DNA of 41,055 nucleotides. Source: a virus (Duplodnaviria; Heunggongvirae; Uroviricota; Caudoviricetes). A model generated the notes under the pieces. It made no database searches. It saw only the letters and a list, made by a program, of their open reading frames with translations, and was not told the origin of the DNA. The DNA lies in the IMG/VR virus record IMGVR_UViG_2529293142_000020. One strand, written 5' to 3'. Below, in pieces: positions 39,501 to 40,064 of the stretch. Made by a program: the position numbers and the translations under genes. Position 1 is the first letter of the stretch. Every line of letters starts with the position of its first letter.

Positions 39501-40064
39501 GCCTTTTCCCTGACACCGGACGGAAAGCTGACCGCTAAAAAATGCGGATATCAGTGGCAGTGTGAATGCGAACTCCGGGACGCTCAACAACGTCACGATT
39601 AATGAGAACTGTCAGATTAAGGGGAAACTGTCAGCCAATCAGATTGAAGGCGATATTGTCAAAACGGTCAGCAAGTCTTTCCCCCGCACGAGCACTTATG
39701 CCAGCGGCACCATTACGGTCACGATTAGTGATGATCAGAAGTTTGACCGACAGGTCATGATACCGCCAGTGTTATTCCGCGGTGGTAAGCATGAGAATTT
39801 CAACAGTAATAACCAACAGTCATACTGGTATTCAACCTGCCGGTTAAGAGTGACCCGCAATGGTCAGGAGATTTTAATCAGTCCACGACGGATACTCAGG
39901 ACGTATTTTCCTCAGTTATAGATATGCCTGCCGGACAGGGGACGCTGACACTGACATTCACCGTATCTTCATCAGGAGCGAATAACTGGACACCAACAAC
40001 CAGTATCAGCGATCTGCTGGTTGTGGTGATGAAAAAATCCACAGCAGGTATCAGTATCAGCTGA
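36582..40064 (+). CDS. J: Central tail fibre / host specificity protein J (lambda gpJ-like), broken into three ORFs by two compensating frameshifts
   Basis: ORF 36582-39602 (frame 0), 39562-39921 (frame +1) and a frame-0 tail to the stop at 40062-40064 are all J-like; breaks at the A6 run 39537-39542 and the T4 run 39872-39875. Confidence 0.85.

Follow-up and report, generated by a model that had tools for sequence, protein, structure and literature searches.

The receptor is bound by the C-terminal Ig-like domain of gpJ (PMC11101478). The window analysed in the present study, which is the whole stretch of 41,055 nucleotides of the IMG/VR record IMGVR_UViG_2529293142_000020, is a lambdoid prophage with a head module of the HK97 type, a tail module of the lambda type whose last genes are K-I-J-lom-stf, and an IS1414 insertion. 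Its gene order around J is the same as that of lambda-type phages, and tblastn mapping and the annotated relatives place J behind K and I, with lom and stf following it. After repair of two single bases, J of the window also agrees with lambda-type gpJ in the order of its domains and in having the Ig-like receptor-binding domain at its C-terminus. As written, however, it is broken into three frame segments, and the sequence of its receptor-binding domain differs from that of the LamB-binding domain of lambda.

Three further systems can be compared with this locus. The programmed -1 frameshift of the tail assembly chaperones G/GT likewise works by a shift on a run of A and belongs to the same tail operon (30600-30607); that site is conserved among the relatives, carries a long slippery run with a structured downstream region and has both frames in use, whereas the J sites have none of these. 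Hendrix and Duda are said to have reported in 1992 that the stf gene of laboratory lambda PaPa carries a frameshift. There, too, a one-base change breaks a tail gene for host range up into separate ORFs, but the lesion has been verified by experiment, stands alone with no compensating change, and lies in stf and not in J. Homopolymer-length errors of flow-based and nanopore sequencing create artificial frameshifts in draft genomes. Like the changes in the window, they are +/-1 changes in A/T runs, private to one assembly, found in coding and intergenic DNA, far more numerous than substitutions, and able to split genes that are otherwise intact; the window is assigned to this class by its signature only. 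We consider it quite probable that the two frameshifts in J are homopolymer miscalls in an error-prone assembly and not biological.

The J gene starts at 36582, and its parts, as read from the DNA, are the following.

36582..39602, plus strand: J ORF in its present form, 1006 aa; J-like up to about residue 986, then 20 out-of-frame residues and a stop (ORF list, tblastn)
39537..39542, plus strand: A6 run, A5 in the relatives; +1 shift (sequence, alignment)
39538..39873, plus strand: 336-nt segment in the +1 frame, J residues about 986-1097 (translation, tblastn, Pfam)
39600..39602, plus strand: frame-0 TAA after the first shift (sequence, three-frame translation)
39872..39875, plus strand: T4 run, T5 in the relatives; -1 shift back to frame 0 (sequence, alignment)
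39873..40064, plus strand: final 63 J codons and stop, again in frame 0 (translation, tblastn, Pfam)

The sequence-only reading had claimed an extra A in the first run, with a +1 shift, and a missing T in the second, which restores frame 0. Both were borne out by alignment with three intact relatives (EC12, E89 and phage PhiR70_1), in which the only two gaps were A6 against A5 and T4 against T5. It had also been stated that the segment between the runs is J-like only in the +1 frame, and this agrees with the three-frame translation, with a match to PF12421 and with tblastn. With an intact J as query, residues 1-988 mapped to frame 3 (36582-39545), residues 986-1096 to frame 1 (39538-39873) and residues 1097-1159 again to frame 3 (39873-40061). 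The +1-frame segment holds the end of the tail-tip fibre and the first half of the receptor-binding domain, and its translation ends in RNGQEI; the last piece (39873..40064) holds the second half, and the resumed frame 0 ends in AGISIS, followed by the stop codon at 40062-40064. The claimed frame-0 stop at 39600-39602 was found in the sequence, in the ORF list and in the translation. Thus the DNA as written does not give a single J protein, as had been proposed; translation stops at residue 1006, ahead of the receptor-binding domain. The description of the two shifts as compensating is correct in arithmetic but fails in function, because translation of J already meets a stop 58 nt past the first shift and so cannot be rescued by the second. 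An antisense ORF of 694 aa was also seen within J (37512-39596, minus strand), and it is very likely a by-product of J codon usage and not a gene.

A continuous J ORF of about 1130-1160 aa is absent from the raw sequence and appears only after the two-base repair. Removal of one A and addition of one T gave a single ORF of 3483 nt encoding 1160 aa, which is the length of the intact J in near-identical prophages, and the ancestral frames were fully open with no further decay. The best database matches of the repaired protein were intact J proteins, many in number, with 98% identity and 100% coverage. No 100% match to the repaired J was obtained in two large protein searches, which display only the representatives of 90%-identity clusters. 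In Pfam, the repaired J matched FNIII-A_GpJ, Phage-tail_3, Ig_J, Ig_J_second, Phage_Tail_Tip and Ig_GpJ_C, all above the cut-offs, while the raw 1006-aa ORF kept the first five families and was without the C-terminal receptor-binding domain. The tail-tip fibre domain was located at residues 872-1000 of the repaired protein and the receptor-binding domain (PF12421) at residues 1037-1160. The J-likeness of the +1 segment is not due to chance, since this segment matches PF12421 positions 15-71 (E = 1.3e-15) and the last J piece matches positions 75-135 (E = 1.4e-16). Furthermore, the C-terminus of the repaired J was nearly identical to PDB chain 9wca_J (the "A8 gpJ 713" receptor-binding domain) and clearly related to lambda gpJ (8iyk, 8xcj).

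Both run lengths in J were all but unique to the window. Across 5,426 complete E. coli genomes, neither was found in any other J copy: A6 was present at 0 of 6,350 matching places in 2,651 of these genomes, where the best matches to the A6 pattern reached 70/71 and differed by exactly the one-base gap, and T4 at 0 of 2,616 matching places in 1,422 genomes, where the top-scoring copies again deviated from the window by this single-base gap. All of the approximately two dozen relatives inspected base by base carried A5 and T5. Exact-pattern scans of genome and metagenome contig collections gave no A6, alone or together with T4, and a protein collection held no exact match to the truncated J (1006 aa), to the middle ORF or to the N-terminal tape-measure fragment. 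In IMG/VR, the A5 pattern occurred at least 120 times, the A6 pattern once and the T4 pattern not at all. The only other bearer of A6 is the unrelated contig L005 (IMGVR_UViG_2541047123_000024), a short O157-type J fragment (reverse strand, 756 and 1264), in which a compensating -1 change (T6 to T5) is located about 500 bp upstream of A6. This contig showed five small indels in 6 kb relative to O157:H7 EC4115, namely the compensating pair and three more, and it looks like another error-laden draft of low accuracy.

The sequence-only reading implied a feature specific to J, and this was not supported, as both changes fall within a window-wide set of ten one-base changes of A/T-run length. Compared with near-identical assemblies, the window carries ten or more one-base indels, all in A/T runs of at least 4 bases, and such runs make up 5% of the window. 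Nine of the ten are contractions and one, in the J A-run, is an expansion; four are intergenic, and the others split genes, with two in J and one each in L, the tape-measure gene, a cro-like gene and a hypothetical gene. Those outside J are listed here.

7304..7308, plus strand: A6 to A5, frameshifts a cro/YdaS-like HTH gene (7290-7555) at codons five to seven; compared with AFDY02000046.1 and four assemblies
13772..13776, no strand: T6 to T5, intergenic; from the AFDY02 comparison
15977..15981, minus strand: T6 to T5, frameshifts a 128-aa hypothetical gene (15919-16301, minus strand) downstream of Q; private to the window
19765..19774, no strand: T6 G T5 to T5 G T4, intergenic, upstream of the holin gene; two adjacent runs, each minus one base (19765, 19770)
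29498..29503, no strand: T7 to T6, intergenic terminator tail; differs from AFDY02 and from a Logan contig
33191..33196, plus strand: A7 to A6, splits the tape-measure gene into 30953..33409 and 33202..34197
34638..34644, plus strand: T7, where near-identical relatives have T8; splits tail gene L (34531-35228); common to AFDY02000068.1

When the proteins of strain TH9F11, the closest relative among the complete genomes, were mapped to the window, the tape-measure protein, L and the hypothetical protein each extended across two frames. The structural genes otherwise aligned end to end at 94-100% identity, with no nonsense mutations and no deletions. Some of the runs deserve separate mention. 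The run at 29498..29503 may be polymorphic, because it showed no gap against the more distant prophage of TH9F11. The tape-measure run at 33191-33196 has three lengths in near-clonal sequences, A6 in the window, A7 in near-identical prophages and A8 in the Logan contig SRR12852093_63, which has 0 mismatches to the window over 11.5 kb yet carries A8; this run may be truly variable or hard to sequence in general. The frameshift in L is the sole one that the window has in common with another record (AFDY02000068.1), all others having T8, and it may be real or a shared artefact.

Exact-protein look-ups led to far closer relatives in AFDY02 (GCA_000225185.3), a draft of E. coli STEC strain 031, whose contigs 46 and 68 cover 1-12798 and 13260-38172 of the window (37.7 kb) and end before both J sites. 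Both contigs break within the same copy of IS1414 that the window carries, and contig 68 breaks inside J, at window position 38172. Over these 37.7 kb, we found 0 substitutions outside a 532-bp patch in J and seven one-base A/T-run contractions, at 7304, 13776, 15981, 19765, 19770, 29500 and 33191. At all seven contraction sites, independent drafts of 99.4-99.9% identity sided with AFDY02 wherever they overlapped, and in these drafts the tape-measure gene, L and J were intact, J with A5 and T5. In mismatch-repair-deficient E. coli, the background that favours slippage most, 5,324 indels were recorded against 30,061 substitutions, which is about 15% of the point mutations (PMC8510543); on that share, the probability that seven of seven events are all indels is about 2e-6. 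At seven changes per 37.7 kb, about 0.5 would be expected in the last 2.9 kb, where two were seen (P about 0.10), and the two changes beyond the end of contig 68 are unremarkable. The 454 chemistry is prone to errors in homopolymer run length. The genome of strain 031 (AFDY) was first sequenced on 454 Titanium with Celera assembly (PMC3491183). The window may represent this strain or a clonal relative in an assembly made earlier or in parallel.

The changes in J are most likely sequencing errors, because they are two of ten A/T-run changes scattered over the window. Their location alone does not decide the matter, since real slippage and miscalls both concentrate in homopolymers; it is the spectrum that decides for miscalls, because seven indels and no substitutions outside J separate the window from a near-clonal assembly. 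In addition, the indels were strongly directional and affected intergenic runs as readily as coding runs. Two features expected of homopolymer errors were observed, namely +/-1 changes that are confined to a homopolymer and, at the J runs, absent from all other assemblies, and many such changes along the contig, non-coding DNA included, with few or no substitutions against near-identical assemblies. We therefore suggest a sequence of events in which the assembly consensus would miscount A/T homopolymers, and the extra A at 39537-39542 and the missing T at 39872-39875 would be two of these miscounts. From this signature we infer a technical cause, which would be miscalling of homopolymers by pyrosequencing or long-read sequencing, and the presence of paralogous J copies possibly made it worse. 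In the real DNA, J most likely encodes one ordinary tail-tip receptor-binding protein of 1160 aa.

Some observations count against miscalling. The J A-run gained a base, unlike the nine other runs, each of which lost one; the window has its L frameshift in common with AFDY02; and the A8 of the Logan contig hints that the tape-measure run may truly vary. Furthermore, J has two private nonsynonymous substitutions that simple homopolymer miscalling does not explain. One is at 37743 (S388G), found at 0 of 7,439 matching places in complete E. coli genomes, and the other at 39901 (G1107D), where the surrounding window sequence was matched at no place in these genomes. Two patches of J, 37212-37613 and 39443-39639, also carry alleles typical of other J copies and not of the near-clonal relatives, and they represent either a recombination mosaic or paralogous J copies mixed in the assembly. 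The genome probably holds several lambdoid prophages, and the break of AFDY02 contig 68 inside J fits such mixing. Taken together, the substitutions and patches suggest that the consensus is less reliable here or that paralogous J copies were mixed, but they could also be real and reflect a distinct history of this J. We also considered the indels as recombination junctions of the mosaic patch 39443-39639 and rejected this, as the A-run is inside the patch and not at its edge.

Such points leave genuine mutation as a rival reading. It describes a defective, decaying prophage in which slippage in short A/T runs hit J twice as well as cro, the tape-measure gene and L, and in which the second J change was neutral, translation having already stopped at 39600. 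If the L frameshift is real, the prophage was already defective and further real decay becomes plausible; its presence in two records supports this, as do the A8 of the Logan contig, the two private substitutions of J and the IS1414 insertion, which shows a history of change in the element. Frameshifted gpJ pseudogenes are also annotated in finished genomes, e.g., in O157:H7 EC4115. Nevertheless, we regard decay as unlikely. Seven indels with no substitutions outside J against the near-clonal assembly are far from the measured mutation spectra of E. coli, and four of the ten changes are intergenic. The neutral decay that accompanies pseudogenes (substitutions, nonsense codons, deletions) was not seen in the structural genes, and the ancestral frames show no further decay. 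The J lesion occurred in no other assembly, and the L lesion was common to AFDY02 only; of the two J alleles, A6 alone recurred, in the error-laden contig L005. A phase-variable on/off switch of J by slipped-strand mispairing at both runs would likewise make the lengths real, and both changes do sit in simple runs. These runs are very short (5 nt), however, and their length is invariant over thousands of copies, where a contingency locus varies in tract length among strains or copies; neither A6 nor T4 occurred in complete E. coli genomes, and as a means of regulation, a pair of switches separated by a stop within a single gene makes no sense. We consider such a switch highly improbable.

Programmed recoding would keep the run lengths and still give some full-length J, with ribosomes or RNA polymerase slipping by +1 on A6 and by -1 on U4, and the outcome would be a regulated or low-level receptor-binding protein. 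From the sequence, tRNA-Lys can shift by one base on A AAA AAU and still pair perfectly, and the same prophage carries an A8 slippery run for its natural G/T chaperone frameshift (30600-30607, intact and located where G ends). Runs known to give useful transcriptional slippage are longer than A6 and U4. The arrangement also lacks conservation, every homologue having J in one frame with A5 and T5, and none of the downstream structure that stimulates frameshifting was detected. The 80 nt downstream of each J site folded no better than shuffled sequences (z 0.14 and -0.01), while the 80 nt past the G/T A8 site (30609-30688), used as positive control, folded better than shuffles (z -2.49). Moreover, with a stop between the two sites, two independent rare events would both be required, and the second site is without a slippery heptamer and would replace Phe by Leu. 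We give recoding a negligible probability. In its concrete form, real run lengths with low-level full-length J made by a +1 shift on A AAA AAU and then a -1 shift on AUU UUA, it is scarcely credible; if true, a prophage tail that is otherwise silent would acquire receptor binding only rarely and at random.

The value of the finding that the J frameshifts are probably sequencing errors lies mainly in quality control, with the entire window to be flagged for the quality of its assembly. An annotation made at face value would list the receptor-binding protein, the tape-measure protein, L and cro of this prophage as broken, and this would lead to wrong calls of host range or of a "defective prophage". 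Such errors are avoided once the window-wide homopolymer signature is recognised, and the signature casts doubt on all other frameshifts of this assembly. Real lesions would represent only ordinary prophage decay.

Several other elements of the prophage were recorded. The IS1414 copy, of the IS256 family, is located at about 12385-13699 (transposase 12457..13665) between hokD and the DUF968 region, and relatives without it align across the gap. Three prophage tRNA genes, Met(CAT), Lys(TTT) and Arg(TCT), are placed at 17695-17935, downstream of the Q antiterminator region. A pair of ParE toxin and PaaA2 antitoxin genes (6272-6744, minus strand) adjoins the immunity region, as obtained by coordinate transfer from the Pfam-annotated AFDY02000046.1. 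At 8484-8489, the replication-organiser gene has an extra copy of a 6-bp repeat (ACAGAT or CAGATA) relative to some relatives, which is an in-frame polymorphism. The left edge of the window falls exactly on the integrase stop codon (1-1020) and its right edge inside stf (40795-41055), and the window looks like a predicted provirus with a gene-boundary trim on one side and a contig end on the other. In the relatives, the first gene of the host flank past the integrase gene is of the Bax1-I family, and DsrC-family, acylphosphatase and methyltransferase genes come next.
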